This document shows, piece by piece, positions 1,469-61,363 of a stretch of DNA of 64,000 nucleotides. The stretch is from Bdellovibrionales bacterium (GTDB taxonomy: Bacteria; Bdellovibrionota; Bdellovibrionia; Bdellovibrionales; JAUICD01). The notes below the pieces were generated by a model. It made no database searches. It saw only the letters and a program-made list of their open reading frames with translations, and had not been told where the DNA came from. Both the position numbers and the translations under genes were made by a program. The first letter of the stretch is position 1, and every line of letters begins with the position of its first letter. The DNA lies in contig OZ241865.1 in NCBI GenBank assembly GCA_965203275.1, positions 1,792,001 to 1,856,000 on the forward strand, written 5' to 3'.

Positions 1469-2267
1469 TTTCTTTAACATTTCACTCAAAATGAGCCACA
1501 CCGCTGGTGTGTTTTTGGGCATTGCTCTGACAGCTATCGCTGTCCAAAAAGAGCAATGCCTCAAAAATCCGCTCATTTTGAGTAGAGAAGGATCTTTTTA
1601 TTCCTTTACACCATGTTAAGGAAAAATTTCTTTTATTACCTCAAAAGCAAGCAGGTTGCGATAAAGGAACTTTTTCCTTAACATCGTGTTTTTCCGGGAT
1701 CTGGGATCCGGGATCAGGCAACCCGGCATCAGGTCCTAAAACTGAACTTTTTCCTTAACATGTAGTCAAAAAACGAAGAGATCCTCCTCTACTAAAAGTA
1801 AACGGACTTTTGAGGTTGCCAGCATTTAAGAAGGCGAATAGCCTTCGGCTGGCAACCCAAAAGTGACCAGAGGTCAGTTTACTTTTAGTGAAACAGTTCA
1901 GGCAATATTAGATTTGGAATTTGTTGGTTGTATGGAATTAGCAAAACAAGCTGATAAATTAGGAGCTTATTTATACAAGTTGTGTAAAAACACTTAAAGT
2001 CAAAATTGATTTTTTCCGGGATCCGGCATCCGGGATCCCGGCAGACAGGCAAGAATGAAGCGAATATCTTGTTTCCTTAACATGGTGTTAAGAAACGAAG
2101 AGATCCTCCTTACTAAAAGTGGTCAGGCTTTCTAGGTTGCCAGCATTTAAGAAGGCGAATAGCCTTCGGCTGGCAACCAGAAAGTGACCAGAGGTCAGAC
2201 CACTTTTAGTGAAACAGAGATGTGGCTCATTTTGAGTGAAACAGAGGTCAGACCACTTTTAGTGAAA
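1469..2267. repeat. Composite modular repeat locus: 3 H units, J palindromes, GGGATCC arrays, four-helix-bundle gene fragment, terminal stubs
   Basis: H ~1480-1585(+), ~1789-1893(-), ~2110-2214(-); TTTCCTTAACAT motifs at ~1673, 1750, 2072; stubs 2215-2267. Confidence 0.9.
1896..1997 (+). pseudogene. 3' fragment of four-helix-bundle protein gene
   Basis: Encodes ...QAILDLEFVGCMELAKQADKLGAYLYKLCKNT*, near-identical to the C-terminus of 46840-47145, and is followed by the same downstream sequence. Confidence 0.9.
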
Positions 2268-2283
2268 AAATTCATTTTGCCTA

Positions 2284-2313
2284 TTGACTTTTATATTTTC
2301 CTTATGTTAAAGT
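2284..2313 (+). promoter_or_regulatory. Putative sigma70 promoter
   Basis: TTGACT ... TG-T-TAAAGT upstream of a small ORF and the symporter gene. Confidence 0.4.
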
Positions 2314-2375
2314 AATTATCTTTTTAAGAAGTTCACCATTTTAGTATTTACAAATTTAGGATTAGGAGGCTAATT

Positions 2376-2492
2376 ATGAAAATTATGAAAGTATTATTTC
2401 TTAACCACTTTCTGATTTTTTCTGCAAACAGCAATCTTACGATAAAGAGGAACCTGGTGAAACTTCGTCGTCGCTCTTTATCTTGTCAATGA
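2376..2492 (+). CDS. Putative 38-aa small ORF or leader peptide
   Basis: AGGAGG RBS; MKIMKVLFLNHFLIFSANSNLTIKRNLVKLRRRSLSCQ*; GATAAAGAG/CTCTTTATC stem inside. Confidence 0.3.
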   Translation: MKIMKVLFLNHFLIFSANSNLTIKRNLVKLRRRSLSCQ

Positions 2493-2701
2493 GATATTAC
2501 CTCTCACTAAAAATTCTTATCAATACGTATTAATTTATTCTCTTAGCAAGCTAAGGGTATGTCTGTGGATTCTTGCAACCTTTGCCTTATTTTTAATGCT
2601 AAAGCACTTGTCTGTAAATGGTTTGAAGCATTCAAAGCATTTTATGTATCAATGAATAAAAAGGACAAGAATAAAAGCTTAAAAAACAAGGGAGGTATAA
2701 A

Positions 2702-4108
2702 ATGGAACAGATCATAGCAACAATAAACGAATTTTTAGGAGTAACAGTAGGTTATGTTTGGGGTTTGCCTTTAGTGATCCTTTTAGCAGGTTCAGGATTT
2801 TTATTTTCTGTTTTACTTAAGGGCATTCAGTTTAAAGGATTTTTTCATGCTATAAGAGTTGTATTTGGTCATTATGATCATAAGGAAGATCCTGGGGAGG
2901 TCATACATTTTCAAGCACTTTCAGCAGCGTTATCTGGAACAGTAGGACTTGGCAATATTGTAGGTGTAGCTATTGCTATTAAGGCAGGAGGGCCAGGGAC
3001 TGTGTTTTGGATGATGATGATTGGCTTTTTAGGAATGGCCACAAAGTATGCTGAGTGTACCTTGGGTGTTATGTATAGAAAGATTGACAAGAATGAAAAA
3101 GTTTTAGGTGGCCCTATGTACTATATTACCAGTGGTTTAGGACCATCATGGAAGTTCATGTCTATCTTTTTTGCTATAGCTTATGTGATCACTGTCTTTG
3201 GAACTGGTAATTTATTTCAAGTCCATTATATGGCCCAGTCTTTAAATGATTCTTTTTCGATACCACAAATATTAACAGGAATAGCACTATCTATAACAGT
3301 TGGAGCTATTATTCTAGGTGGTATTAAAAGAATTGCCTTGATTGCTAGCTATCTAGTCCCTTTTATGGGGATTGTTTATGTAAGTGCTTGTTTAGTGGTT
3401 ATTTTTATAAATATCTTTGAACTTCCTCAGATATTTTCACAGATTATATCAGGTGCCTTTACAGGGACAGCAGCTACAGGAGGGTTTGCAGGAGTATCGG
3501 TTGCTAAAGTGATAGAATTGGGAGCAAGACGAGCTTGTTTTTCTAACGAAGCTGGACTTGGAACAGCAGCTATAGCCCATGCAACAGCTTCCACAAAGGA
3601 GCCAGTGAGAGAAGGGTTAGTGGCTCTCTTAGAACCTTTTATCGACACGATTGTGATTTGTACAATGACAGCACTTGTGATTTTAATTTCTGGATCCTGG
3701 ACTTTGGAATCAAATGTTGGAGAAGCAGAGCTGATCTCTATTGCTTTTAACTCTAGTCTTCCTGGTTTTGGAACTTTTGCTATACCTATTATTATTACTT
3801 TGTTTGCTTACTCTACCACTTTGACTTTTGCCTATTATGGTGAGATAGCTATCAAATTTTTATTTGACAGCAAAAAGTACAAAGCACTTTATGTCACTGG
3901 TTACAAAATATTATTTTGCTTGATCATTATTTTAGGTTCTGTTTGGTCTTCAAATGCAGTTATTGACTTTTCTGATACCATGATGGGCTTAACAGTGTTT
4001 CCTAACTTAATTACTGTTTGGTTCTTGTTTCCTAAACTAAAAAAAGCTACAGATAATTATTTTAAAAAATTAAACAATAATGAATTTGATGCATATCCAA
4101 AGATATAA
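2702..4108 (+). CDS. Alanine/glycine:cation symporter (AGCS family)
   Basis: GTVGLGNI, AGGPG, GGPMYYI and FSNEAGLG motifs; multiple TM helices. Confidence 0.93.
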   Translation: MEQIIATINEFLGVTVGYVWGLPLVILLAGSGFLFSVLLKGIQFKGFFHAIRVVFGHYDHKEDPGEVIHFQALSAALSGTVGLGNIVGVAIAIKAGGPGTVFWMMMIGFLGMATKYAECTLGVMYRKIDKNEKVLGGPMYYITSGLGPSWKFMSIFFAIAYVITVFGTGNLFQVHYMAQSLNDSFSIPQILTGIALSITVGAIILGGIKRIALIASYLVPFMGIVYVSACLVVIFINIFELPQIFSQIISGAFTGTAATGGFAGVSVAKVIELGARRACFSNEAGLGTAAIAHATASTKEPVREGLVALLEPFIDTIVICTMTALVILISGSWTLESNVGEAELISIAFNSSLPGFGTFAIPIIITLFAYSTTLTFAYYGEIAIKFLFDSKKYKALYVTGYKILFCLIIILGSVWSSNAVIDFSDTMMGLTVFPNLITVWFLFPKLKKATDNYFKKLNNNEFDAYPKI

Positions 4109-4181
4109 GTAATACTTTTATGCAAGAATGATCTTTATGTTTGTTATTAAGGATTAGTTATTTGTTCTAAACACGCTAAAT

Positions 4182-4290
4182 CCTAAGTTTGATAGCCTGC
4201 AACAATAAAGTTGAGCAGTTAGTTATAAGTCGAAAGAGATTTTGTGCCACTAGGTTTTTGTCTTTGTGGCAGAATTTTAGAAAATCTATG
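4182..4290. mobile_element. Solo IS1634-like terminal remnant
   Basis: CCTAAGTTTGATAG...GTGCCACTAGGTTTTTG..TGTGGCAGAATTTT matches the IS end at 63617-63730. Confidence 0.8.
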
Positions 4291-4308
4291 TTGTTCCAAT
4301 AAAAGTAA

Positions 4309-4390
4309 AGTAGCCAGAGGCCCCTGGTTTATTTTTAGGGAAACAGAGGTGTGGCTCATTTTAAGGGAAATAGACCACCTTTATGAAACA
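4309..4390 (-). repeat. Tandem degenerate H-unit terminal stubs
   Basis: CCAGAGG...TTTTAGGGAAA-CAGAGGTGTGGCTCATTTT... Confidence 0.7.
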
Positions 4391-4490
4391 AACCGAAAAA
4401 ACTTGACCATTATTAAAACTTGTGTTATCATTCGATGAATCTAAAGTATTGTAAGGTATTTAAACAGAATAATAACATGATGGAGTAAAA

Positions 4491-5531
4491 ATGAGCCTTA
4501 GATTATATCAAACTATGATTTTATGTATGTTTTTAAGTCCTATCACATTGCAGGCTTATTGTAATTTTGAAAGATGTAAAGGATATATTCTAAGTAATTT
4601 AGATCATGTACCTATTACCATGCAAGAAGTCAGTGAACTTCATAATTTCTATACATCTGTTGAGCGTGATTTATTAGAAAACCTTGAAATTTTACCAGAT
4701 GGCACATATAAAGTCACTTTTTCAGAAAATGTAAATGTTTTATTGGGAATGGGCGTAGCTACACGAATGGCATATAATTATAGGCGTTTTACACCTCAGC
4801 CGTTAAAAAGAGAAATAATACCATCGGAATATTATAGAATGAGACAAGGAAGCAATAACTTTTTATGGGATTTTTTTCACGATAAACCTCGTACATATAT
4901 GGAAATACAGGGTTGGAGAAATTATGAAAGTCTAGACTCAACTATTTCTTGGCATAAATCTGATACATTGGGTATGAGGATTTATATGCAGAATCCAAGT
5001 GGAAAATATCAAATTCTAGTTAATCGTGTAGGTCTTTGGAATAACCTTATCCACTCTAATACTCGCCCTGATACTACTAGAGTGTATTTTGATCATAAAA
5101 TTGATGGACAGTGGATTCGATCCAATAGACATTTGTTTTTGAATTTTGATACATTTTACGATAGGAATAGAAAACAAGAAATCATAAGAACCTTGACTAC
5201 ATTGACAGACGCCTTACAGTCAGATGATCCACAAATTTTTGAAAACTACCTAAAAGCCAGAAAAATTAGCTGGACTAGTGCAATAGTCAGGAACAGATTA
5301 ATAAGAGCTGGTAAACTCTTAGGTCGTCACATAAGTCGAAGGACATTCGGGGCGATTTTAGCTGGAGCAGGGATTATTGTAGGAAGTCAAATGCTCTCTG
5401 AGGAGCGTCTACAAGAAACAAAGTTAGTTATATCTATCACAAAAAATCAATGGGAAAATTTAATTGATGATGTAAGAGGAATGACTACAGAACTTTCTGA
5501 GCATGCTACTCTTGATGAGTTGGCTCACTAA
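4491..5531 (+). CDS. Hypothetical exported protein
   Basis: 346-aa ORF, GGAG RBS, N-terminal signal-like segment; no recognised domain. Confidence 0.75.
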   Translation: MSLRLYQTMILCMFLSPITLQAYCNFERCKGYILSNLDHVPITMQEVSELHNFYTSVERDLLENLEILPDGTYKVTFSENVNVLLGMGVATRMAYNYRRFTPQPLKREIIPSEYYRMRQGSNNFLWDFFHDKPRTYMEIQGWRNYESLDSTISWHKSDTLGMRIYMQNPSGKYQILVNRVGLWNNLIHSNTRPDTTRVYFDHKIDGQWIRSNRHLFLNFDTFYDRNRKQEIIRTLTTLTDALQSDDPQIFENYLKARKISWTSAIVRNRLIRAGKLLGRHISRRTFGAILAGAGIIVGSQMLSEERLQETKLVISITKNQWENLIDDVRGMTTELSEHATLDELAH

Positions 5532-5908
5532 AATTGAACTAGTTCACTCAAAATGAGCGGATTTTTTAGATGTTGCCTATTTTGTCAAAGGCGAAAGCCA
5601 TTGCAGGCAACACTCAAGGTGTAAGAAGGAACTTTTTCCTTAACATCATGTCAATCCGGGATCTGGGATCCGGGATCTGGCAACCCGGCATCAGAAAGGA
5701 CTTTTTCCTTAACATGTAGTTAAGAGATGAGGAGATCCTTCTTACTAAAAGTAAACGGACTTTTGAGGTTGCCAGCATTTAAGAAGGCGAATAGCCTTCG
5801 GCTGGCAACCCAAAAGTGACCAGAGGTCAGTTTACTTTTAGTGCAAAAGACGGCTAGTTCAATTTTAGGGAAACAGGAAACAGAGGTCAGACCACTTTTA
5901 GTGAAACA
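5525..5908. repeat. Composite modular repeat locus (partial H, J, G array, J, full H, stubs)
   Basis: Same modules as 1469-2267; full H ~5742-5843(-). Confidence 0.9.
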
Positions 5909-6003
5909 AAGGAAACAATACTTTTTAAAATAGGTGGCTGTCTTAAAAAAGCGAAGTCTAGAAAATCTGCTCATTGTGAATTAAAAGTGAAAAAGGTTTA
6001 ATA

Positions 6004-7116
6004 ATGATAAATCCAATAAAGGAAATTCTAGAAATTAGCCCTTACAAGCCTGGCAAGCCAATTGAGGAGACTCAAAGAGAATATGGCTTACAAAAGGTTT
6101 ATAAATTAGCCAGTAATGAAAATTTACTAGGCACAAGCCAACGTGTTAAAGAAGCTATCTTAAAAGCCGTTGATCAAATACATCGCTACCCTGACGGAAG
6201 TTGTTATCTTTTAAAAAAAGCTCTCAGCAAATATTATTCTGTTGCAGAGGATAAAATAGCTTTAGGCAATGGGTCTGATGAACTCATTGTGCTTTTAATG
6301 CGTTCTTTTTGTCGACCTGGTGATAAAGTCCTTTTATCAAAAGGGTCTTTTTTACTCTATAGTATTTTTGCCCAAGGCTGTCTGTTGAAAAAGACAGAAG
6401 TTCCTTTGAAAAAAGATTATTCTATTGACTTAAAAGGCTTAATGACGGCTTGGAGGCCAGAGCATAAAATAGTTTTTTTACCTAATCCAAACAATCCTAC
6501 AGGAAGCTGTGTTTCAGATCAAGACCTGAGAGAGTTTGTTCATTTTTTTCATCAAAAACAAGATGTGTTGATTGTGGTAGATGAAGCTTATAGTGTTTTT
6601 GTCACAAGGAGTGATTATCCTCAATCAATAAAAATGCTTAAGGAGTTTCCTAGATTAGTTGTTTTAAGGACACTTTCAAAAGATCATGGACTAGCAGGCC
6701 TACGTTTAGGCTTTTTATTAGCTGATCCATGCATTGTAGATGTGATCAATAGAATACGTACGCCTTTCAATGTCAATTATTTGGCACAAGTAGCAGCTGT
6801 TGCAGCTTTAGAAGATCAGGAATATCTTGATAGGTCACGCACACTCAATGCAGAAGGATTGCAATATTTTGAAAAGTGTTTATCAAAAATGAAATTACCT
6901 TTTTGCCAAAGCCAAGGTAATTTTATTTTTTTTGATTCATTAAGAGATTCCACTGTACTCTTTCAAGAGCTTTTAAAAAAAGGCCTTATTTTAAGACCCC
7001 TAAAGCCTTATGGATTTGAAACACAGTTGAGAATGACTGTGGGATTGATGGAAGATAACAAAGTAGCTATGCATATTCTTGAGTCTGTTATTAAAGATGT
7101 TTCTTTATTGAGATAA
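6004..7116 (+). CDS. hisC: Histidinol-phosphate aminotransferase
   Basis: KLASNEN, GNGSDE, NPNNPTG, DEAY and RTLSK..GLAGLRLG motifs. Confidence 0.93.
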   Translation: MINPIKEILEISPYKPGKPIEETQREYGLQKVYKLASNENLLGTSQRVKEAILKAVDQIHRYPDGSCYLLKKALSKYYSVAEDKIALGNGSDELIVLLMRSFCRPGDKVLLSKGSFLLYSIFAQGCLLKKTEVPLKKDYSIDLKGLMTAWRPEHKIVFLPNPNNPTGSCVSDQDLREFVHFFHQKQDVLIVVDEAYSVFVTRSDYPQSIKMLKEFPRLVVLRTLSKDHGLAGLRLGFLLADPCIVDVINRIRTPFNVNYLAQVAAVAALEDQEYLDRSRTLNAEGLQYFEKCLSKMKLPFCQSQGNFIFFDSLRDSTVLFQELLKKGLILRPLKPYGFETQLRMTVGLMEDNKVAMHILESVIKDVSLLR

Positions 7117-7171
7117 AAATCCTCAAAAGCTATTTATTTTTTAAAAGTATCAATAATCCTTTTATCATACC

Positions 7172-11023: not shown

Positions 11024-11183
11024 ATTCTGTGGAACTATTTACTTATACGATGGGCTAATAACACCTGACAAGGTTTTTTATTGAAAAATTAATCATTTTA
11101 AGTAGAAAAGATTAAGTTGTTGTTATACAAGGGTATCTGAGTTAGAAGCTTACAAAAATGAAGTTTAAGTTATTTCAGTAAGT

Positions 11184-11260
11184 CCTGAGTTTGACAGCCT
11201 GCAAAAATAAAATTGAGCAAAATAAGTAAGTTATGAGTCAAAAGAGAGTTTGTGCCACTA
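11184..11260. mobile_element. Solo IS1634-like terminal remnant
   Basis: CCTGAGTTTGACAG...GTTATGAGTC..GTGCCACTA matches the 63617 end; a degenerate copy precedes it at ~11137. Confidence 0.8.
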
Positions 11261-11274
11261 CCATATAAGTCTTT

Positions 11275-18554: not shown

Positions 18555-18560
18555 TGTATC

Positions 18561-18735: not shown

Positions 18736-18934
18736 AAAAATTTTTCATTATGCTACTTCTTTCATGTTCTCTCTTGTTTCATTCAAAATGTGTTCATTAT
18801 ATTCTACAAGAAAGTCAAGGGGGTCTATTCCATCGTCTACAAGACAAGAGATAATCCATTTAAACGTTTTCGGATGTTTGCAAAAAATCTTTAACAAAAA
18901 TAAGAAAAAATATTAAATTTTTCAGTAGGTTGCT

Positions 18935-19139
18935 CCTGAGGTTGATAGCCTGCAAAAATAAAGTTGTGAGATTTCAGTAGGTTAAAAGTTTGTCTGTTTT
19001 TTACTCTTTCGAATTGTGACTTTTATACAAAAGTCACAATATTAAGTTACTAGAATCACTGGATTTCCAATTTTTAAATACCTTTTAAATACCCTTTTCT
19101 TAACCTTTTAGAAAAAAATCTAAAAAGACGAACGTCTTC
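18935..19139. mobile_element. IS1634-like end remnant fused to a third copy of the 11-6-11 palindrome module
   Basis: CCTGAGGTTGATAGCCTGCAAAAATAAAG; ATTGTGACTTT-TATACA-AAAGTCACAAT at 19013-19040; 18988-19150 homologous to 1331-1479. Confidence 0.75.
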
Positions 19140-19755
19140 TTTCCCTAACATTTCACTCAAAATGCATCATGCCTCTGGCATGTTTTCTGGCAGTTAGCCC
19201 GACGGCTACCGCCGTCGATCAAAGGCTAACTGCCTAGAAAATCCATTTATTTTGAGTAGGGAGGATCCTTTTATTCCTTTACACCATGTTAAGGAAATTT
19301 TTCTTTTATTGTCTTAAGAGCAAACAAGTTTACAAATGAAACTCTTTTTCCCTAACATTGTCTTTATCCGGGATCTGGGATCCGGCAACCCGCCATCGGG
19401 CAGACAGCTATCAAAAAGAACTTTTTCCTTAACATGTAGTTAAGAGACGAGGAGATCCTCCCCTACTCAAAATGCATAGATTTTTGAGGCAATGACCATT
19501 TTGTCAAAGGCGAAAGCCTTTGCGGTCATTGCCCAAAAACATGCCAGAGGCATGATGCATTTTGAGTGAAAATAAAGTCATAACTTTGAACCTCCCTTTA
19601 TATCTTTAAACATAATACTTAATAATAACTTAATTTCCAATAATCTGTCCTCCAAGAAACATTATATTATAACTTAGTCAAAAAACCAACCAGAAAGTGA
19701 CCAGAGGTCAGAGCACTTTTAGTGAAACAGAGGTGTGGCTCATTTTGAGTGAAAC
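19140..19755. repeat. Composite modular repeat locus (J-H...J-G-J-H) plus stubs
   Basis: H ~19151-19259(+), ~19463-19571(-); stubs 19690-19754. Confidence 0.9.
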
Positions 19756-19809: not shown

Positions 19810-20262
19810 TATGAGTGGAATGCGGGTGCAGGCTTCCGAAGTCCTCAACCTTCGCTTGCTTTTGAGGAGCAAGCGGGTCTGCGGAAGATCTCCAGCCTGC
19901 CCCCGCCTCCCACTCATAATACTCATGCTTTTTTGAAAATTACGCAGAATCTAAAAGAGAATAAAAAAAAACAAAAAAGAACTTTTTCCTTAACATTTCA
20001 CTCAAAATGAGCCACACCTCTGGTGTGTTTTTGGGCATTGCTCTGACAGCTATCGCTGTCTAAAAAGAGCAATGCCTCAAAAAACTGCTCATTTTGAGTA
20101 GGGCGAATCTCCTTTCTTCTTGACACCATGTTAAGGAAAAAGTGCTTTTATTGCCTTAAGAGCAAGCGGGTCTGCGGAAGATCTCCAGCCTGCCTCCGCC
20201 TCCCACTCATAATATTTATATTTTTTTTGAAAATTACGCAGAATCTAAAAGAGAATAAAAAA
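19810..20262. repeat. GC-rich long hairpin (19810-19917), J-H-J unit (~19985-20139) and direct repeat of the hairpin 3' half (~20160-20262)
   Basis: ATGAGTGG/CCACTCAT, GCAGGCT/AGCCTGC and CGCTTGCT/AGCAAGCG stems; GAGCAAGCGGGTCTGCGGAAGATCTCCAGCCTGC occurs twice. Confidence 0.85.
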
Positions 20263-21787: not shown

Positions 21788-22286
21788 TTTCACTAAAAGT
21801 GGTCTGACCTCTGGTCACTTTTGGGCAATGACCGCAAAGGCTTTCGCCTTTGACAAAATGGTCATCTGGTTCACTAAAAGTAAACCAGCCTCTGGCTACT
21901 TTTGGGTAGCCAGCCGAAGGCTATTCGCCTTCTTAAATGCTGGCTACCTCAAAAGTCCGTTTACTTTTAGTAGAGAGGATATCCTCATTTTTTAACACGA
22001 TGTTAAGGAAACAAGATATCCATTCCCGGGATCAGGCAATCAGGCATCCCGGGTCCCGGAATCTGATGCCAAGTCCCAGATTAACACAAAGTTCCTTTAT
22101 CGCAACTCGCATGCTCCCTAAAAACATTTTAGAAGCATATCTTGTTTCCCTAACATGGTGTCAGAAGCAAGGAGATCCGCTCTACTCAAAATGAGCAGAT
22201 TTTTGAGGTATTGCTCTTTTTAGACAGCGATAGCTGTCAGAGCAATGCCCAAAAACACACCAGAGGTGTGGCTCATTTTGAGTGAG
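21788..22286. repeat. Composite modular repeat locus (truncated H, H, J, G, J, H)
   Basis: H ~21870-21972(+), ~22182-22285(-); G array ~22025-22080. Confidence 0.9.
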
Positions 22287-27932: not shown

Positions 27933-28137
27933 TTTCACTAAAAGTAAACTGACTTCTGGCCACTTTCTGGCGATGACCACTTTTAGTAGGGAGGATATCT
28001 TCGTTTCTTAACCACATGTTAAGGAAACAAGATGTTCACTCCCGGGATCTGGGATCCGGCAATCAGGCATCCCGGATTCCGGAATCTGATGCCGGGTCCC
28101 AGATCCCAGATCCCGGATTTACACCATGTTAAGGAAA
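27933..28137 (+). repeat. Composite repeat: internally deleted H, J, gene-less inverted GGGATC array, J
   Basis: H deletion joins two GACC microhomologies; GGAAACAAGATGTTCACTCCCGGG is the near reverse complement of the downstream boundary of the four-helix-bundle cassette (~47220-47243). Confidence 0.88.
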
Positions 28138-28285: not shown

Positions 28286-28996
28286 ATGGGGGCAGATATG
28301 GCTAATCAAAACAACAAAAAGAAAAAAGAATCTGATCATACACCTGAAGCAGTGTGGAAGGCACTGAAAGAAGTTATTGCTGTGCAGAAAAATCTAGCTC
28401 AAAAAATAGACGAGACACGTCAAAATATAGACAAGGTGAGTAAAGAGACACGGCAAAGTATAGACAAAGTAAGTAAACAGACACAGCAAAATATAGACAA
28501 AGTGACAAGACAGACAGCAAATAATATTAATAAATTAAGAGGTGATTGGGATCATAGATGGGGTGATTTTGTAGAGATTCTTATTTCTGACAATGTAGAA
28601 AGGCTATTTGAAGATTATGGGATCATCAAAGGCAAGGTAGAAACTGTCAATAAAAGAGTTTATCGCTCTGCGAATGGTATCACTCTGTTTGAGTTTGATT
28701 CTATCACCATCAATGGTGACAAAGTCATTATAACAGAAGCTAAAAGGACAATGACAAAAACAAAAGTAAAAAAATTTATTAAAAAAGTACAAAGTTTTCT
28801 GGCTATCAAAGACAATGAATTTTCCAATAAAAAAGTTTACATTGCTATAGGTTATTTAAAAGCAGACAATGAGAAGCTCCTTATCAAATATGCAGAGAGA
28901 CAGGGATTATTTGTGATTAAGGCAGTTGGTGACAGTGCTAAACTTGTGAATTCACCTCAAACTTTCAAACCCAAGCAAGTGAACTTAAATTTGTAA
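28286..28996 (+). CDS. Coiled-coil protein with C-terminal PD-(D/E)XK nuclease-like domain
   Basis: 11-aa repeats ETRQNIDKVSK; WGDFVE...EFDSITINGDKVIITEAK. Confidence 0.7.
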   Translation: MGADMANQNNKKKKESDHTPEAVWKALKEVIAVQKNLAQKIDETRQNIDKVSKETRQSIDKVSKQTQQNIDKVTRQTANNINKLRGDWDHRWGDFVEILISDNVERLFEDYGIIKGKVETVNKRVYRSANGITLFEFDSITINGDKVIITEAKRTMTKTKVKKFIKKVQSFLAIKDNEFSNKKVYIAIGYLKADNEKLLIKYAERQGLFVIKAVGDSAKLVNSPQTFKPKQVNLNL

Positions 28997-29111
28997 TTCT
29001 TTGAATTTGTAATTTCCTGCTCCATCACATCAAACTCGCCTACCTTTAAACTTGAGTTTGATAGATGATTTCATTGAGTTGATTTATGTAGTTTCTATTG
29101 AACTATAATTT

Positions 29112-29546
29112 TTATACGTTGAGTCCAACTAAAACAAGTTTTACCCAAAAAGTCAATGCAGTCACAGCAAGTGTACTTAAAGCAAATAAGATGATGGTTA
29201 TTCTAATGATCAAAGAATATTTGAGAAGTTCTATTTCTTTCTTTGTATCAGCTTTTAGTTGTTCTATATCTTTCTTTGTATCGGCTCTTAGTTGTTCTAT
29301 ATCTTTCTTTGTATCTCTCCTTAGTTGTTCTATATCTTTCTTTGTATCTCTCCTTAGTTGTTCTATGCTTAAATGCACTTGCTCTATATCTTTCTGAATA
29401 AGCAAGATGTCTTTTTTATCAGCTAGATGTTGAAATCTATTATCTTTTTCTTTGTGTAGGTCAATTAAAACAGTAGCTTGTTGCTCTGTAAAGCCGTTAT
29501 CTTGCAGATGTTGGATTAAGTTAAAATCTATTGTTGGTTGTCTCAT
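29112..29546 (-). CDS. DUF1640/CCDC90-like coiled-coil membrane protein with 33-bp tandem repeats
   Basis: LQDNGFTEQQA head, KKDIEQLRRDT-type repeats x4, C-terminal TM. Confidence 0.75.
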   Translation of the reverse strand: MRQPTIDFNLIQHLQDNGFTEQQATVLIDLHKEKDNRFQHLADKKDILLIQKDIEQVHLSIEQLRRDTKKDIEQLRRDTKKDIEQLRADTKKDIEQLKADTKKEIELLKYSLIIRITIILFALSTLAVTALTFWVKLVLVGLNV

Positions 29547-35535: not shown

Positions 35536-35692
35536 GATAGAAGAACTTTTTCCTTAACATCGTGTTAAAAAACAAGGAGATCCTTCCTACTAAAAGTAAA
35601 CGGACTTTTGAGGCATTGCTCTTTTTAGACAGCGATAGCTGTCAGAGCAATGCCCAAAAGCAACCAGAGGTTGGTTTACTTTTAGTGAAACA
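35536..35692 (-). mobile_element. 157-bp J-H repeat unit inserted behind the OMP stop codon
   Basis: Absent from the homologous site after paralog 1 (GGTTGTT|TGCTAG at 20346-20358). Confidence 0.85.
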
Positions 35693-46436: not shown

Positions 46437-46789
46437 ACTTTGTTTCACTCAAAATGAGCCACACCTCTGGTGTGTTTTTGGGCATTGCTCTGACAGCTAT
46501 CGCTGTCCAAAAAGAGCAATGCCTCAAAAATCCGCTCATTTTGAGTAGGGCGGATCTTCTTGCTTCTGACACCATGTTAGGGAAACAAGATATGCATTTA
46601 TTTCACTCAAAATGCATCATGCCTCTGGCATGTTTAGAGTTTGCTTTACAGGTAATATGGTAGCTATAAAAACTATTTGTAAAGAAAGATTGTTGGGTGT
46701 TCTTCTCTGGGATCCGGGATCCGGGATCCGGGATCCGGCAAGCTGGCATCAGGCACTAAAGTATTGGTCGTAATGAATTTTTTCATCTA

Positions 46790-46839
46790 AAAAATTTCCT
46801 CCCAAGCCCTGGCGGGTTTTTAGAAAGGAGGAAATTTTT
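46790..46839 (+). promoter_or_regulatory. RBS-sequestering hairpin
   Basis: AAAAATTTCCTCC pairs with GGAGGAAATTTTT, which contains the Shine-Dalgarno just before ATG 46840. Confidence 0.7.
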
Positions 46840-47145
46840 ATGACGATGAAAAAATTCAAAACTTATCAATTGGCTACTGAGTTTTATCGTAATTCTAAAA
46901 AATTATATCTGAAAGAGCCTCATAGAAGTCAATTTCGAAGGGCTGTTTCAAGTATTGTACTTAACTTAGCTGAAGGATCTGCTAAACCTACAGCGAAAGA
47001 TCGTAGGAAATTTTATTATATTAGCCTTGGCTCTCTAAGAGAGGTTCAAGCAATATTGGATCTAGAAATTATTGGTTGTATGGAATTAGCAAAACAAGCT
47101 GATAAACTAGGTGCTTTTTTATACAAACTATGTAAGAATACTTAA
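46840..47145 (+). CDS. Four-helix-bundle protein (23S rRNA IVP / Avd-like fold family)
   Basis: QFRRAVSSIVLNLAEGS...F..ISLGSLREV signature. Confidence 0.9.
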   Translation: MTMKKFKTYQLATEFYRNSKKLYLKEPHRSQFRRAVSSIVLNLAEGSAKPTAKDRRKFYYISLGSLREVQAILDLEIIGCMELAKQADKLGAFLYKLCKNT

Positions 47146-47693
47146 AGTCAAATTTGACTTTTTCTGGGATCCGGCAACAGGTCCTGGAACCCGGGATGCC
47201 AGATCCCCAGGTCCCGGATCCCGGGAGTGAATATCTTGTTTCCTTAACATGGAGTTAAGGGACGAGAGGATCCTCTTTACTCAAAGTGAACAGGCTTTTG
47301 AGGCAATGACCATTTTGCCAATGGCGAAAGCCATTGCGGTCATTGTCCAAAAGTGACCAGAGGTCAGTTCACTTTGAGTGAAACAACTCCTTAACATGGT
47401 GTTTATCCGGGATCCGGCATCAGAAAGAACTCTTTTTCCTTAACATGGAGTTAAGGGACGAAGGGATCCTCCCTACTAAAAGTGGTCAAGCTTTCTAGGC
47501 AATGACCATTTTGCCAATGGCGAAAGCCATTGCGGTCATTGCCAGAAAGTAGCCAGAGGCTAGACCACTTTTAGTGAAACAGAGGCTGGTTTATTTTTAG
47601 TGAAACAAACGCTAGACCACTTTTAGTGAAACAGAGGTCAGTTCACTTTGAGTGAAACAAACAAACTTAGATAATGAAAGGACCAAACGAAGG

Positions 47694-48071
47694 ATGCCAA
47701 CAGTTAATCAATTAATTAGAAAGCCTAGAGTTATGCCTAAGGCAAGGACAAAGTCACCTGCGTTAGCTAGATGTCCTCAAAAGAGAGGTGTATGTACTCG
47801 TGTTTATACACAAACACCTAAAAAGCCTAATTCTGCTTTGAGAAAAGTGGCCAGAGTGAGGCTTTCAAATGGCCATGAGGTGACAGCCTATATCCCTGGA
47901 ATAGGTCATAATTTACAAGAGCATAGTGTGGTCTTGATTCGAGGTGGTCGTGTTAAAGATATTCCAGGTGTTAGATATCATATTGTGCGTGGAATTTTAG
48001 ATACACAGGGTGTACAAAATCGACACCATGCTCGGTCTAAGTATGGTAGCAAAAAACCCAAAAAATCCTAA
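47694..48071 (+). CDS. rpsL: 30S ribosomal protein S12
   Basis: MPTVNQL...[11 protein letters not shown]...GGRVKD; true start 47694. Confidence 0.98.
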
Positions 48072-50891: not shown

Positions 50892-50909
50892 TATGATACA
50901 CTATTATGT

Positions 50910-54338: not shown

Positions 54339-54481
54339 AAGGATACACATATTTGAGTGAAAACAGAAGGTGGAAAAGCCAATCTAGGTTAGGACAATTT
54401 TGGGGGAGACCAGCTTTTCCACCTCATTTAATTTTTATATTTTCAAAGTCATTCTTTGATGATTTCTTGTTTTATCTTAAA

Positions 54482-55078: not shown

Positions 55079-55110
55079 TGTTATTTTTTTACCCTTATAT
55101 TTATTCTTCT

Positions 55111-55126
55111 TGCTAATATCATGCCA
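55111..55126 (-). promoter_or_regulatory. Sigma54 -24/-12 promoter
   Basis: TGGCATGATATTAGCA on the minus strand. Confidence 0.55.
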
Positions 55127-55169
55127 AGTGAAATGCTGTTTTTATCCCATTTCAGTGTCTATAAATTAT

Positions 55170-56081: not shown

Positions 56082-56172
56082 GAGATTTCTTTTTCATTTG
56101 TCGCAAGATCATAAAGTTATAATACTAATGGCACGATACTAATGGCACGATAAAATAAAATGGTCAATGTAT

Positions 56173-57009
56173 TTAGATAGGATATCTATTAATTAATCGA
56201 CGTATGCGGTTTTCTACACTGGGCAAGTAATGAAAATAACGTTGAACTGTATCTTGATCTAAAGGATTGACGATAAAAAGATGTGCTGTAGAAGGAGGAA
56301 CTACGATAGGTTTTGTTTGAGCATAAGAATGCAATTTCCAAAGAGCTTGTGCTAAATGCTGAGGATCTCCACAAACTTGCTGAGCAAATTGATCTGCTTC
56401 ATAGTCACTTTGTATATTGATCATCTTCTTTAAACACATTGTAGCTAAAGGCATCAAAAGATAAGTACACATTCCTTGCTGAAAGGGTTGTTTTTTCCTT
56501 AAAATAAAGGCTATGCACTGATCTAAATAATGTCCTAAAAAAAGAAAAGCATTCATTATAACACTGCCAACTCCAAAAGCCAGAGTGTCTAGCTTTTTAA
56601 TATGAAATATTTCATGGGCTAGCACAGCTTTGAGTTGATGGGGCGTTAGAATTTGAGCCAGACTTTTAGAGATCACAATATAACTCTTAAATTGACCAAC
56701 AGAAAAGGCCGTAGGGGTAGATAAAGAAGTAATAAGTATATCTGGTGAGGGAATAGATGCTTGATCAGCAAGCTCTCTGACTGTTTGATGGATCTTCCAA
56801 GGGTCGAACCCTTCCATCTTTTGAGTTGAGAATAAATGCCGTAATTTTTGATCGCTATATAAATATATGTACACATTCCATGTCACAACCACAGCAAAGG
56901 CAACAAGTAATCCTTGGCGATCATAGATGATATAGCCAAGCAACAAGATGACAGCAGAAACACACAATAAAAACAAAAATATCTTTACTATATTATAAGT
57001 CATATTCAA
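56173..57009 (-). CDS. htpX: HtpX-like M48 zinc metalloprotease
   Basis: AVLAHEIFH, EAD, LAQALWKL, AHLFIVNP. Confidence 0.8.
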   Translation of the reverse strand: MNMTYNIVKIFLFLLCVSAVILLLGYIIYDRQGLLVAFAVVVTWNVYIYLYSDQKLRHLFSTQKMEGFDPWKIHQTVRELADQASIPSPDILITSLSTPTAFSVGQFKSYIVISKSLAQILTPHQLKAVLAHEIFHIKKLDTLAFGVGSVIMNAFLFLGHYLDQCIAFILRKKQPFQQGMCTYLLMPLATMCLKKMINIQSDYEADQFAQQVCGDPQHLAQALWKLHSYAQTKPIVVPPSTAHLFIVNPLDQDTVQRYFHYLPSVENRIRRLINRYPI

Positions 57010-57011
57010 GA

Positions 57012-58754
57012 TTACCGATCTAGCTCTCCTGCAATGACATTCATGCTTCCGAGAATAGCAACCACATCAGATAAAAGCCGATTTTCAATAGCTTTAGCAA
57101 AAGACTGATAAATAGCAAAGCAGGGAGGGCGAACCTTTAACCGATAAGGTTTTGGCTCTCCGTTACTTATAAGATAAAAACCTAACTCTCCATTGGCAGC
57201 TTCTGTTGCATCATAAATTTCTCCTTGAGGAGGCTTTAAGCCTTTGATCACTAGCATAAAATGATTCATTAAACCTTCAATATTACCATATACATCTTTT
57301 TTATCAGGTAAAACAATTTGTTTATCACGAATGGTAAAATCACCTTCAGGGATATTTTCGACGACTTGTCTGATGATCTTCATAGATTGTCTCATTTCTT
57401 CTAATCTTACTAAATAGCGATCATACACATCGCCCGAAGTTCCTACTGGTACATCAAAGTTTAGTTGGTCATAACCATAATAACTAGTAGCTTTTCTAAG
57501 GTCTAAACCCACACCTGTTGCACGCAAGCAAGGTCCTGTGTATCCATAAGCAATGGCTTCTTCTGCGGAGATACAGCCTACATTTTTGGTTCTTTCAACC
57601 CAGATTTTGTTATGAGTTAAAAGCTTGTCGATCTCATTAACTCCCTTTTCAATTTTATTAAGAGTTTCTAACACATCGTCGAACCATCCTGGAGGAGGGT
57701 CATTGGCCATGCCACCCACACGAGTCATAGAAACAGTCAATCTTGCACCGCAGAGCTTTTCAAAAAGGCTATACACCATCTCTCTCATATTAAATAAGTA
57801 AAAGAAGCTTGTCATAGCTCCTAAGTCCACAGCATTTGCACCAATGCAGACACAATGATCAATAATACGACTTAACTCACATAAAACAATACGAATAGCT
57901 TGAGCTTTTGGAGGAATTTCTATGTCCAGTAATCGTTCTACAGTTTTACAATAACCTACATTGTTCATAGGAGCAGAGCAGTAATTTAATCTATCTGTAT
58001 AAGGAATGACTTGATTGTAATGATGTGTTTCTGCCATTTTTTCAAAGCAACGATGCAGAAAGCCAATCTCTACATTAGCTCGATGAATGGTTTCACCATC
58101 TAACTCAGCCATAATTCTGAGTGTTCCATGAGTGGCAGGATGAGAAGGTCCAATATTTAAAGATACAAGATTTTTATTAGGATCCTTCTCATAAGTCATG
58201 TCGTTTTCAAAATGCAAATCTTTAACAGAATAACAATGTTGTTGCTGATCTGATCTATAATCCTTACGTAAAGGATGCCCTTGGAATTCATGGTGTGTCA
58301 GTAATCTTTGCAAGTAAGGATGCCCTTCAAATATGATGCCAAACATATCATAAGCTTCTCTCTCGAACCAATTAGCTCCTTTCCATAAAGGAGTGATAGA
58401 TTTAATCTTTAAAGAAGGTGGTAATTTTGTTTTAAGCCTTAAGCGTTGGAAGGTTTTAGATGAGAAAAAATGATAGGCTACCCATAAACGATTTTCTTTA
58501 GTAAAGTCTTTAGCATTTGTATCAACAAGTTTATTTTGAGGAGATAGATCTTTTAAAGGGTAGGTTAAATAATCTATTCCACAGACATCCATTAAAAAGT
58601 CATATATTTGTGTTTGCTTTAAATATTTGACGAAGTTATAGACTTGATCTGATGGGATATTTATAACATCATCGCCATATTCTGTGTAAAATTGAAATAG
58701 AGAAACATCAAATGAAGTGGCTAACTTTTGTTTTATTTGCTCTAAGTGCTTCAT
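57012..58754 (-). CDS. nuoCD: NADH-quinone oxidoreductase fused subunit C/D
   Basis: ERE.YDMFG, GHPLRKDY, NIGPSHPATHG, GELDR. Confidence 0.95.
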   Translation of the reverse strand: MKHLEQIKQKLATSFDVSLFQFYTEYGDDVINIPSDQVYNFVKYLKQTQIYDFLMDVCGIDYLTYPLKDLSPQNKLVDTNAKDFTKENRLWVAYHFFSSKTFQRLRLKTKLPPSLKIKSITPLWKGANWFEREAYDMFGIIFEGHPYLQRLLTHHEFQGHPLRKDYRSDQQQHCYSVKDLHFENDMTYEKDPNKNLVSLNIGPSHPATHGTLRIMAELDGETIHRANVEIGFLHRCFEKMAETHHYNQVIPYTDRLNYCSAPMNNVGYCKTVERLLDIEIPPKAQAIRIVLCELSRIIDHCVCIGANAVDLGAMTSFFYLFNMREMVYSLFEKLCGARLTVSMTRVGGMANDPPPGWFDDVLETLNKIEKGVNEIDKLLTHNKIWVERTKNVGCISAEEAIAYGYTGPCLRATGVGLDLRKATSYYGYDQLNFDVPVGTSGDVYDRYLVRLEEMRQSMKIIRQVVENIPEGDFTIRDKQIVLPDKKDVYGNIEGLMNHFMLVIKGLKPPQGEIYDATEAANGELGFYLISNGEPKPYRLKVRPPCFAIYQSFAKAIENRLLSDVVAILGSMNVIAGELDR

Positions 58755-58767
58755 TTAATATTCCTAT

Positions 58768-59337
58768 CTAAGCTGCTGGAGGTGACTTTGTAGATGGAGA
58801 TTTGTTCCAGTTGTTTTTCCAGTGATCCTTCCATGGACGAGGCTGGCCTGAGGCAATCATTTTTTGCAAAACCATTAAGCCATCTAGTACAGCTTCAGGT
58901 GTTGGTGGACAACCAGGAACATACACATCAACAGGGATGACTTTGTCTATTCCTTGGAGAACATGGTAAGCTCTGTAAAAACCGCCAGAACTAGCACAAG
59001 CACCCATAGAGAGAACGTATTTAGGTTCTAACATTTGTTGATAGATATGGATGAGTACGGGAGCCATTTTCTCTGTGATGGTACCTGCTACTAAGAGTAA
59101 ATCTGATTGTCGAGGAGAAAACCGCACCACCTCTGCACCAAAACGGGCCATGTCATATTTAGGGCCTAGAACAGACATGAGTTCAATTCCACAGCAGGCT
59201 GTACCATAAGGTAGGGGCCATAGAGAGTTCTTACGTCCCCAAGCCATTAATTTATCAAAACGGGTTGTAAAAGCTGCTGTCTCTAAAAGACCTTGTGTCT
59301 TCACGGAGCCAATTTTAACTTGAGGTTTATTATTCAT
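58768..59337 (-). CDS. nuoB: NADH-quinone oxidoreductase subunit B
   Basis: [24 protein letters not shown]. Confidence 0.96.
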
Positions 59338-59517
59338 TATGACCTCTCACTTATTGTTCTTGCTTATGTGCTTGTTTTGCTTGCTTTGTATGTAATTTGT
59401 TTACAATTTGTTTGTCAGGGATGACTCTTACTTTTCTTATTATTTATTAGTTTATATAAATCACTGTGCATTTGTCAAGGTGTTATTTGCTATTTTCAAT
59501 ATTGGCAATATGGGCTT

Positions 59518-60792
59518 TTATGAAGGTTTAGACCTCAAGGCTTGAGATGGTGTTTTTTCCACAGTGAGGAAGGCAGGTAGCCAAGCTGACAGCAAAGAGA
59601 TCACAACAGACAATATCATAATCAAAGTAATCCCGATAAAGTCTAGCTTAACAGGAAGGCTTGTATCATAATAAATATCAGGCAACCGCAAGAGTGTAAA
59701 ATGATCTAAAAGAAGGCTTAAACCAATACCAATACTTAAACCACTACAAATCCCTAATCCTGCTAATCCACAACTGATACTCATCATTAAACGATGTGTT
59801 TTTTGAGGGGATAATCCTAAAGCCATTAACAAGCCCATATCTTGTCTTTTTTGTGTACCAAGTAAGATCAAAACAGTGATAATAGCAAAGTTACTAATTA
59901 AAAGACTTAAGCTTAAAAATATTACAATTAAGAACTTCTCCATCTTTAAAGAATAAAAAAGATGAGAGTTACGGCTAGCCCAGCTTTCTACAACAAAGTT
60001 TGAATCTGTTATGTCTAAATACTTTTTATAGTCATCTGGATCGTCTAGCCAAACTTCTATTCCTTTTTGCAAAGAAGCTGTTTGACCTAGAGCTGCCAAT
60101 GTCTTGCCTTTTTTGTAAAAGATACTTTGAGAGATAGTTTTTGAGTCTGTCATAGGAGTGTTGATTATGCCAATCACCTTGACTTGATCAAAAGGGGGTA
60201 TTTCTCCAGGTGGCAACAATAAAGACTCTGGAGCGATCACCACCACTTGATCTTCTTGAAAAATACCTAGACTTCTAGCTAAATCCATTCCCATAAAAAC
60301 TTCATCATCACGAATTTCAATATCTTCTTCTTGTGGTTCTTGTAGCTCTTGTGGTTCTTGTGAAGTCATACCTTGGTTTTCAATTCTCTGTAGTAGCTTC
60401 TTTAGAGGGGCTGAGTCCATGCCCTTAGCTATTGCTCCTTCATAGAATCCATCAGCTGTTCTGATTAAGACATCTTGTTGTTCAAAAATGTAGCCTTCTG
60501 CATCAGGTGGCAGAGCTTTTAATAGCTTTTCTTGTTGGGTTTGTGTGTTGTTTTGTGTGGGGTTTCGAGTGTGGTTTTGTTTAGGGCTTTGGAAGATTAA
60601 ATGAGGTTCTACGGCAAGTAATCTTTGCTTGGTATTCTCGCCTAAGCCGTTCATTATACTTAAAACGACTACCATGGATGTAATGCCTAATGTGACACCT
60701 AGGAATCCAATCCAAGAAATAGTTCGAATAAGAGAACCAGCAGCTTTAGAGAATAAATATCGAAAGAAAAATGTTTTTATCATAAATGCCAT
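59518..60792 (-). CDS. Lipoprotein-releasing ABC permease, LolC/E family
   Basis: VLSIMNG, large periplasmic loop, LKMEK, IYY..SLP. Confidence 0.85.
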   Translation of the reverse strand: MAFMIKTFFFRYLFSKAAGSLIRTISWIGFLGVTLGITSMVVVLSIMNGLGENTKQRLLAVEPHLIFQSPKQNHTRNPTQNNTQTQQEKLLKALPPDAEGYIFEQQDVLIRTADGFYEGAIAKGMDSAPLKKLLQRIENQGMTSQEPQELQEPQEEDIEIRDDEVFMGMDLARSLGIFQEDQVVVIAPESLLLPPGEIPPFDQVKVIGIINTPMTDSKTISQSIFYKKGKTLAALGQTASLQKGIEVWLDDPDDYKKYLDITDSNFVVESWASRNSHLFYSLKMEKFLIVIFLSLSLLISNFAIITVLILLGTQKRQDMGLLMALGLSPQKTHRLMMSISCGLAGLGICSGLSIGIGLSLLLDHFTLLRLPDIYYDTSLPVKLDFIGITLIMILSVVISLLSAWLPAFLTVEKTPSQALRSKPS

Positions 60793-60931
60793 CTTATATT
60801 TTTTATAAGATTTTAAGTAAAAAGTAAAAATAAATAAGCAGAAGATATTTGCTTTCTTGACGTTGTTTTGGTTTTAGTGGGAGAGAGAAGATGTTCCTCA
60901 TCCCAAACCCCACCCGCCACCCTTCGATTGT

Positions 60932-61363
60932 TGTTTCACTCAAAATGAACTGGCCTCTGGCCACTTTTGGGTAGCCAGCCCGACGACTTTCGTCGTCGAT
61001 CAAAGGCTGGCTACCTCAAAAGCTTGTTCATTTTGAGTAGAGGAGGATCCTTTTATTCCTCTACACCATGTTAGGGAAACAAGATATACCTCTAAAATGT
61101 TTTTGGAAAGCAAGCTCAATGCAATAAAGGAACTTTTTCCTTAACATGGTGTTAAAAAGCAAGGAGATCCTTCCTACTAAAAGTGGTCAGGCTTTCTAGG
61201 CGATGACCATTTTGCCAATGGCGAAAGCCATTGCGGTCATTGCCAGAAAGTAGCCAGAGGCTAGACCACTTTTAGTGAAACAGCTTAGCCTTTGATCGAC
61301 GGCGGTAGCCGTCGGGCTGGCTATCCAAAAGTGACCAGAGGTCAGTTCACTTTGAGTGAAACA
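60932..61363. repeat. Composite modular repeat locus (H, J, spacer, J, H, truncated H)
   Basis: H ~60934-61040(+), ~61174-61280(-); partial H 61283-61361. Confidence 0.9.

Follow-up and report, generated by a model that had tools for sequence, protein, structure and literature searches.

A 145-bp repeat with a covarying three-way-junction fold in a Bdellovibrionales genus and its possible movement as folded single-stranded DNA

The genome of a Bdellovibrionales bacterium (G000; a single contig of 2.57 Mb, 35% GC, rated 90% complete) carries a family of branched repeats, here named the Y-repeat, which we analysed in a 64,000-nucleotide stretch of that contig (G000:C1:1,792,001–1,856,000, hereafter the window) and across the genome. 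The unit is ~145 bp long and non-coding, and its fold is a three-way junction plus two small hairpins. On balance, we think that the Y-repeat is a non-autonomous mobile element moved as folded single-stranded DNA (ssDNA), with a precise TCACT joint after a YTG motif and another end finished by repair. The boundaries, the nesting, the target motif and the filter on the stems can be read off the copies themselves. By analogy, the Y-repeat would best be read as a one-ended ssDNA element of the REPIN/bcr1 kind, probably a selfish one; no link to it emerged for any of the enzyme families searched.

The unit runs from TCACT to GTTAAGGAAA. A preliminary description had given a size of ~105 bp with an end at AGTAG, but the unit continues ~40 bp past AGTAG to GGAAA, through a RRRGGATCYYYY hairpin and then a YYTTRAC-NNN-AT-GTTAAGG hairpin. 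These limits are set by the fact that identical units occur in differing flanks: 34 pairs of identical TCACT..GTTAAGG units have both flanks different, and around such cores the sequences are close to background similarity once upstream of TCACT or 3–6 nt past GTTAAGG. The 5′ side consists of TCACT, the outer arm, the side hairpin, the hexamer and inner arm, the apical hairpin and an A-rich bulge; the 3′ side consists of the inner arm, a bulged T, the hexamer, a 3-nt junction bulge, the outer arm, AGTAR, the GGATC hairpin, the YYTTRAC-NNN-AT-GTTARGG hairpin and AAA. A strict parse of G000 yielded 537 units with 467 distinct sequences; the CC-TCT-GG side-hairpin loop site is present in 524 of these 537 units, and the single bulged T is retained in 336 of 350 units. 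The unit ends form a weak inverted repeat (TTTCACTAAAA versus TTTCCTTAACA, 8/11 matched) but do not covary, and no covariation supports pairing of the leader with the tail.

Across G000, the profile built from the 105-nt core has 1,290 matches, 798 of them near full length. A k-mer parse resolves 1,884 pieces, which cover 5.9% of the genome; 637 of these are full units, 496 are 5′ heads and 530 are 3′ remainders. The family numbers ~640 full copies and more than 1,000 fragments, in 399 clusters or arrays. Full copies are intergenic: only 10 of 640 lie mostly within open reading frames (ORFs) of at least 150 aa, although ORFs cover 72% of G000. In the window the copies are placed between housekeeping genes such as rplJ-rplL-rpoB-rpoC and rpsL-rpsG.

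The window contains 15 full copies (1482 to 61278) and 18 partial pieces (Table 1), in agreement with the preliminary description, which counted about 15 near-complete copies of one topology. The shared TTTCACT...AGTAG ends that it reported are less uniform than stated: 12/15 copies start with TTTCACT (the others with TTGCACT, GTTCACT or TCTCACT), 12/15 carry AGTAG and 3/15 AGTAA, and 10/15 have both ends. Every outer, side, inner and apical stem allele that it named is present, and the interval 35587–35690 indeed joins the AAAAGTAAAC outer stem to the GGCATTGCTCT inner stem. The apical loops on the opposite strand read GAAA, GATA and GGTA, as described, and also GAATA.

Both the thermodynamic and the comparative evidence support the fold. 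Two copies, each folded as single-strand DNA on both strands, give z scores of −10.6 to −11.4, and 0/200 shuffles are as stable. For covariation, we aligned 40 sequences, comprising 11 from the window, 27 from the congener G001 and two from contigs of G004, a member of the same family; with G002 and G003, five family genomes were compared in all. The consensus fold has 41 pairs, 30 of which change on both sides, and 94.8% of cells are paired, compared with 77.6% in shuffles and 33–48% in slid controls. None of 500 shuffles reaches the observed covariation; this count is not a p-value, because one alignment of related sequences supplied both the fold and the test. The compensatory stems proposed earlier are therefore confirmed within that limit.

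The preliminary description also held that stem versions combine independently. Instead, the alleles are mosaic yet linked: among 452 distinct units, Cramér's V is 0.75 for outer–side, 0.71 for inner–apical, 0.52 for outer–inner and 0.35 for outer–loop. The two outer arms, 90 nt apart, agree in 459/537 parsed units versus 92 expected under independence. Furthermore, stem integrity goes with copying. Cores are multi-copy in 75/280 stem-matched cases versus 5/70 mismatched ones (p = 2e-4), and 0/36 hybrids with at least two stem mismatches are multi-copy; young recombinants would be singletons too. What is selected appears to be the element's own copying rather than a host RNA function. The earlier proposal that structure rather than sequence is selected is supported by outer-arm matching and by the multiplication of stem-intact copies. 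The junction, bulge and terminal bases are also sequence-conserved, so that structure plus a few fixed bases is maintained. Template-switch correction is described in the available text of 10.1101/2021.04.15.439925 as able to yield multi-base compensatory changes, and could account for part of the compensation in the absence of selection.

Copies nest inside older copies. In a bracket test of 143 head–remainder pairs, 11 of which were dropped for want of an allele call, the alleles of head and remainder are complementary in 64/132 pairs; 2000 shuffles average 19.8 such pairs and never exceed 35. In a three-level nest at G000 2,079,694, alleles agree at each level. Head ends peak near positions 18, 24–26, 33, 45, 63 and 81, with remainders starting slightly further on, and breakpoints concentrate at the side-hairpin loop, the apical loop, the bulges and the terminal-hairpin loop. 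The targets are frequently loops and bulges of the repeat's own fold and of other hairpin repeats.

The two ends of the unit behave differently. The TCACT boundary is sharp at 155 unique-flank sites. In G001, CTG occupies positions −5 to −3 in 93/97/90% of 30 strictly parsed units (31/51 units by a looser pattern), and in G000 the motif is a less strict YTG, with G at −3 in 62% of 623. Comparison of filled and empty sites, made by eye on part of 151 cases, shows that the target loses ~5–16 bases with no duplication, and that the joints carry a short filler rich in T and G on the TCACT side, as well as pyrimidine-rich tails. No general target-site duplication (TSD) is found: in a search for repeats of at least 10 bp, repeats of at least 20 bp occur at 11/343 flanks versus 4–5 in controls. 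A snap-back origin of the tails is weakly supported (29% versus 10% at ≥6 nt), and the tails also resemble older GGATC modules.

Arrays share this polarity. They run head-to-tail with TCACT ends outward; 231/399 start at a TCACT end, 230/399 finish at one, and 196/399 are one-directional. In addition, the TCACT end lies within 25 nt of the stop codon for 17/49 conserved genes, compared with 1/19 for the other end (p = 0.014), which would fit deletions that run from the TCACT end until coding DNA halts them; the same count over all genes (85/183 versus 9/68) is inflated by ORFs ending within the Y-repeat. Replichores are split without bias (307/640), a figure that is uninformative because the GC skew of G000 is scrambled. 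Metagenomic (Logan) contigs aligned to G000 455–475 kb are broken at the repeats and yield no interpretable empty site. An ORF encoded by a concatemer, as in Neo, was considered and rejected, since the segment lengths have no mod-3 bias (233/207/263).

The evidence favours DNA over RNA as the form in which the Y-repeat is read. The exact octamer GCGNNAGC occurs on the minus strand in 394/467 distinct units and on the plus strand in none, and 858 of the 984 GCGNNAGC-type motifs in G000 fall inside the Y-repeat. According to PMC13037366 (in the portion available), GCGNNAGC forms a DNA mini-hairpin of extraordinary stability, which occurs at ssDNA origins and promoters. Among the 394 minus-strand mini-hairpins, 118 have non-GNRA loops. 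The apical loop is G…A on the minus strand in 453/453 parsed distinct units, partly by construction, as the regular expression demanded T…C on the plus strand. The stems are 97–99% Watson-Crick, and G-T pairs are rare. RNA helices commonly contain many G-U pairs. What wobbles there are point to the minus strand: the inner, hexamer and apical helices together have 69 G-T pairs on it versus 18 for the reverse, multi-copy cores have 14 versus 0, and the minus strand folds slightly better as RNA in 142/150 cases. No promoter or terminator delimits the unit in the one region examined.

The preliminary description had left open a structured noncoding RNA or an ssDNA recognition site. The latter fits best, and a structured noncoding RNA is disfavoured because there is no Rfam match, the loops are of DNA type, G-T pairs are rare and the copies look like insertions. 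Specifically, the Rfam check that it had suggested found 0 matches above the gathering score in the whole window, that is, no match to a described Rfam family, and at 47100–47700 only hits with E ≥ 1.1 that lie on heptamer repeats.

We searched G000 and its relatives for an enzyme that could mobilise the Y-repeat. In G000 we found no Y1_Tnp/RAYT (PF01797), no reverse transcriptase (RVT_1; in a genome 90% complete on one contig), no IS110, no AEP primase and no integron integrase. The sole Y1 gene of G001 is of the IS200 type, with no Y-repeat match in its locus, and the reverse transcriptase profile has three matches there, including a group II intron and a retron-like enzyme. Y2_Tnp (PF04986) is absent above cut-off from the five genomes, a weak test given that the controls were likewise silent, and RepHel was not searched for; the Rep_1 search, whose controls were silent, is uninformative. 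The only GIY-YIG match in G000 and G001 is a UvrC-sized ORF, with no small gene of the Ssn type. A search of G000 for the C-terminal domain of SbcD gave no match, again a weak test. Subtracting the genes of G003 and G004 from those common to G000 and G001 yielded no new candidate; it covered 13% of G001 (380 kb) and 25% of G003 (400 kb). A genus-specific, uncharacterised mobiliser protein is possible.

Several genes that came up as candidates were rejected. G000 encodes only two tyrosine recombinases, one XerC/D-like (307 aa) and one of 187 aa; the latter is order-wide, being present in 19/21 relatives, nearly all of which lack the Y-repeat. This 187-aa protein (L002:1417–1980) consists of the catalytic domain only, is 52–72% identical in 15/20 order relatives and was not found in two reduced g3 genomes. 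The TnpB profile matches only frames of 1,343 and 1,365 aa and no small TnpB. These Cas12a-sized frames (G000 238,802–242,779, 1,365 aa; G001 ~2,592,500, 1,343 aa) are absent from G002–G004 and present in both Y-repeat genomes. Rpn/Transposase_31 has 16 matches in G003, a genome without the Y-repeat. Rpn/YhgA-like nuclease genes stand beside a Y-repeat upstream in 15/22 and downstream in 12/22 cases, the corresponding numbers for other genes being 196 and 181 of 1,266. Four-helix-bundle genes also occur on the main contigs of G004, and PolyA_pol in all five genomes. IS1634 has ends (CCTGAGTTTGACAG) unlike those of the Y-repeat. IS1634-type ends lie at window 4181–4236, 11183–11238, 18934–18989 and 63615–63670, with 84 matches in G000, and an intact 552-aa IS1634-type transposase ends at window 63729.

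The Y-repeat resembles several known systems and belongs to none of three of them: it has no RAYT, free GTAG tag, Y2, TSD or intact target that would place it within REPIN, bcr1 or IS91/Helitron. The likeness to REP, BIME and REPIN sequences, as set out in the available text of PMC3116915, PMC3333891, PMC8266576 and PMC3733652, includes hundreds of intergenic palindromic copies, clusters, tandem arrays, insertion into or next to copies, the importance of a bulged ssDNA structure, a CT near the junction and a GTAG-like tetramer before a small hairpin; high copy number, intergenic placement and clustering are all found in the Y-repeat. However, the Y-repeat is a 145-bp three-way junction, whereas a REP is described there as a 20–40-nt hairpin or inverted doublet, and the replicating unit of a REPIN is the inverted doublet, whereas here a single polar unit occurs in varied flanks. 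The Y-repeat has one sharp and one loose end and deletes target bases, with no RAYT in G000 or G001. In addition, the first bases of its GTAG pair as part of the outer stem, where columns 4/112 covary between A-T and C-G, unlike the conserved unpaired tag at the foot of a REP; the tag reads GTAG in 434 and GTAA in 103 of the 537 G000 units, and GTAA, GGAG, GTAG, GGAA or CTAG in G001. REP cleavage at CT is guided by the tag; in G001, a CTG precedes the Y-repeat unit.

By description rather than by sequence, bcr1 of the Bacillus cereus group is similar in its size (~155 bp), cruciform-like branched fold, compensatory changes, dispersed mobile copies and restriction to one lineage, and differs in having 5-bp direct repeats and being transcribed (PMC3184786, in the text available); the Y-repeat has no TSD, nests within itself, has discrete mosaic alleles and makes up 5.9% of its genome. 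With IS91/IS801 and Helitrons (PMC3189936, PMC4778049, in their available parts), the Y-repeat shares one essential precise end, a loose other end with a nearby hairpin, absence of TSD and carriage of flanks. IS801 targets GAAC/CAAG, the complement CTTG resembling YTG, and the Y-repeat starts with TC, as Helitrons do. In contrast, these elements leave the target intact, whereas the Y-repeat target loses ~5–16 nt and gains filler; nor does a Y2 gene score above cut-off here, in the weak test without a RepHel search noted above. We found no IS91/Helitron-type family with an internal covarying three-way junction in the accessible text of those two sources. The NTS/SRM repeats of Ssn nucleases are likewise strand-specific ssDNA hairpins in hundreds of copies clustered around genes, but an SRM measures ~30 bp and goes with a GIY-YIG gene of ~94 aa (PMC11893778, as far as its available text goes), in contrast to the UvrC-sized frames of G000 and G001.

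From these features we infer the enzyme, the intermediate and the active strand as follows. A nuclease or ligase that reads structure, most plausibly of the HUH type by analogy, would join the TCACT end to a target cut after YTG. The other end would be loosely finished by host repair through microhomology or homology to an older copy, a process that may also carry flanking modules along. Deletion and gene conversion between nested copies would swap inner modules while the outer arms stay paired, generating mix-and-match alleles, and compensatory alleles would persist if only copies with intact stems are copied again.

Several observations weigh against movement as folded ssDNA. The strand signals are not uniform: the terminal hairpin prefers the plus strand (G-T 786 versus A-C 26), the target motif lies 5′ of the plus-strand end whereas the large Y prefers the minus strand, and the wobble bias is weak or absent in the outer (56:36) and side (12:16) stems. 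In G001, just 10/59 distinct matches have the exact mini-hairpin, and 30/50 have G..A loops. No candidate enzyme emerged among the families searched in G000, and clean HUH strand transfer should leave neither filler nor deletions. Many nested joints recur letter for letter with different heads, so nested composites are partly copied or converted as such and the recurring joints are not all independent insertions. Finally, mobility is deduced from sequence comparison.

A more tentative proposal goes further: the Y-repeat might represent an orphan class of ssDNA transposon, served by an enzyme not described before that reads structure, or by the core proteins of replication and repair alone, in which the Y fold acts as the signal for mobilisation and also as the favoured target. 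Growth would then be fractal, from hairpin into hairpin loop, because one fold plays both parts. In the sister species G001, even 12–14-nt hairpins are inserted into the same loops.

An unlikely alternative dispenses with a dedicated enzyme. Hairpins would break or stall forks, host repair would copy another locus by strand invasion and microhomology, and template switching would perfect the stems in the absence of selection. The lack of a mobiliser among the families searched, the junction deletions, filler and recurrent composite joints, and the choice of hairpin loops and bulges as targets would all be expected from such repair, as would 97–99% Watson-Crick stems if template switching makes multi-base compensation (10.1101/2021.04.15.439925, in the text available). 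It accounts less well for a TCACT boundary that is sharp at 155 unique-flank sites and for the strong CTG of G001. The junction bulge and the bulged T (336/350) are retained rather than corrected, stem-broken hybrids exist but none is multi-copy, and the SbcD C-terminal domain was not found in G000, in what is a weak test.

Still less probable is a SINE-like retro-element, in which a minus-strand RNA with the 3′ end …AGUGA and an A-rich tail would be reverse-transcribed from a 3′-OH at the target, giving one precise and one ragged end. This model predicts the same polarity, the T-rich filler is A-rich on the minus strand, that strand tolerates G-T pairs and folds slightly better as RNA (142/150), and G001 encodes group II intron and retron-like reverse transcriptases. 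But no reverse transcriptase was found in G000, the genome richest in copies, 118/394 mini-hairpin loops are non-GNRA, G-U-type pairs are scarce, and there is neither a TSD nor, in the one region examined, a unit-defining promoter or terminator.

We consider a host-functional structured RNA or ribozyme family very improbable: strong covariation in two species and the many copies directly after stop codons speak for it, but ~640 full copies and more than 1,000 fragments, which are nested, face either way with respect to genes and were found in one genus only, with a DNA-type loop motif and no Rfam match, do not. A MITE whose terminal inverted repeats are degenerate, mobilised by a DDE transposase of, for example, the co-occurring IS1634 type, has been largely excluded already: the imperfect inverted repeat of the ends (TTTCACTAAAA versus TTTCCTTAACA, 8/11) and the presence of IS1634-type genes in G000, G001 and G004 contig C11, but not in G002 or G003, would suit it, yet IS1634 ends (CCTGAGTTTGACAG) differ, unit ends do not covary, no TSD is made, the target loses bases, and a MITE needs no internal three-way fold; IS256 ends were not compared. 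Least plausible, and also largely excluded, are attC-like or dif-like sites at which a tyrosine recombinase builds cassette arrays: the integron core is GTTRRRY, which the terminal hairpin YYTTAAC-N5-GTTAAGG resembles, and many 5′ joints read G^TT, but nested-joint targets do not continue with TT, no gene-then-site orientation is seen, the geometry is unlike dif, and G000 has just the 307-aa XerC/D-like and the order-wide 187-aa tyrosine recombinases.

The Y-repeat is apparently found in one genus only, in G000, in G001 and on apparent contaminant contigs. Of 384 genomes in the order, a pattern search hit three, with 569, 182 and 5 matches, and found nothing in the 381 others. The wider search that had been proposed with a covariance model reached 3/5 family genomes and 0/150 other genomes of the class, where only 21 candidates were scored per genome. 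In G004, all 13 profile matches fall on contigs C1, C4 and C11 (loci L042, L045, L052, L059 and L060), which duplicate single-copy genes of the large contigs (recG-like, ribosomal proteins, transketolase) and are closer to G000; these contigs are probably contamination from a third member of the same genus. Strong covariation is present in two species, and G001 has the same fold with other alleles; small hairpins are inserted there in the side loop (24 matches in 380 kb) and in the apical loop (2 matches). Loci L164 (G001 ~2,908,400), L154, L158 and L162 show a run of ~13 identical 25-nt heads before one unit, and 14-nt hairpin inserts (CGAGGCGAGCCTCT) that recur in the side loop. A 3′-bulge variant at L045:8250–8350 and L042:4690–4730 has an insert containing TTATCCACA, which we take to be the DnaA-box consensus; one such 13-mer occurs in G000.

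Beyond these genomes, a sponge-metagenome sequencing run contains a strain ~1.5–4% divergent in the pieces shown; no RNA run was among those listed as containing it. In a metagenome scan with too loose a pattern, 0/115 of the loci listed matched the profile (best E 0.31), and a scan of genome contigs returned at least one locus, from a Bdellovibrionales metagenome-assembled genome; absence elsewhere does not follow from either scan. Viral contigs were rejected as a source, three patterns giving 1, 1 and 0 loci, with both matches inside genes by chance. No description of the Y-repeat family was found in the literature searched, whose coverage leaves out most subscription papers.

Table 1. Y-repeat units and pieces in the window (window coordinates).
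Feature	Position	Strand	Details
Full unit (reference for sequence, fold and consensus pairs)	1482–1621	+	TCACT 1482–86; outer arm 1487–96; side hairpin 1497–1511 (loop site CC-GCT-GG); hexamer and inner arm 1512–28; apical hairpin 1529–44 (minus strand GCGATAGC); A-rich bulge 1545–49; inner arm 1550–60; bulged T 1561; hexamer 1562–67; 3-nt junction bulge 1568–70; outer arm and AGTAG 1571–85; GGATC hairpin 1586–1600; terminal hairpin 1601–21
Full unit	1753–1891	−	
Full unit with heads	2075–2265	−	Unit 2075–2212, preceded by two stacked heads (2221–2239, 2242–2265) ending at the side-hairpin loop
Two decayed heads	4307–4362	−	
Internal remainder	5546–5613	−	Consensus positions 36–103 of an interrupted older copy
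Full unit with heads	5707–5904	−	Unit 5707–5844 (GCACT start), heads before it
Full unit	19153–19294	+	TCACT end lies within the loop of an opposite terminal hairpin (joint CCCTAACAT|T)
Full unit	19427–19569	−	
Two heads	19687–19752	−	
Full unit	19998–20136	+	
Head and full unit	21790–22008	+	77-nt head joined to unit 21871–22008
Full unit	22148–22285	−	
Internally deleted unit	27935–28024	+	Positions 0–45 joined to 89–140
Full mosaic unit	35552–35688	−	AAAAGTAAAC outer stem, GGCATTGCTCT inner stem
Full unit and head	46445–46635	+	Unit 46445–46582, begins 8 nt past the rpoC stop codon; then a 32-nt head
Two full units and heads	47242–47655	−	Units 47242–47381 and 47438–47577, three stacked heads (47580–47655); before rpsL
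Full unit	60936–61076	+	
Full unit with head	61139–61359	−	Unit 61139–61278, preceded by a 75-nt head (61285–61359)

Other repeats and genes accompany the Y-repeat. A second covarying family of nested hairpins, with a conserved internal loop (CGAAGTCCTC … TGCGGAAGATCT), lies at window 19811–19917 and 20159–20210 and at L148–L166; we counted 59 copies of it in G000 and 15 in 380 kb of G001, with none in the main contigs of G004 or the examined part of G003, and it is a frequent target of the Y-repeat. With the same two-genome distribution, this family may ride the same machinery. At window 987–1471 there is a non-coding repeat of ~415–485 bp with internal inverted repeats of ~45 bp (CTAGTGATTTCA…), of which 21 copies exceed 400 bp, with 87–92% identity; most are attached to an end of a Y-repeat, and none was found in the examined part of G001. 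A 101-aa four-helix-bundle gene (PF05635; window 46708–47225), one of 12 near-identical copies, is located between rpoC and rpsL, flanked by GGGATCC-type heptamer runs alongside Y-repeats. Two small coiled-coil genes with 33-bp (11-aa) tandem repeats, from large multi-copy families, occupy window 28286–29546.

If the Y-repeat spreads by plain repair and gene conversion, it is a dense but ordinary selfish repeat. Near-perfect covariation of an intergenic repeat need not imply a functional RNA. The Y-repeat bears on the still unsettled way in which REP-like repeats spread, with or without a transposase of their own: it fills 5.9% of its genome, where our searches for mobiliser families found none. 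Its ~640 full copies form an archive of boundaries, target motif, nesting order and the structural variants that get copied, and the YTG^TTTCACT joint offers both a substrate and a readout for finding a new ssDNA cutting-and-joining activity.

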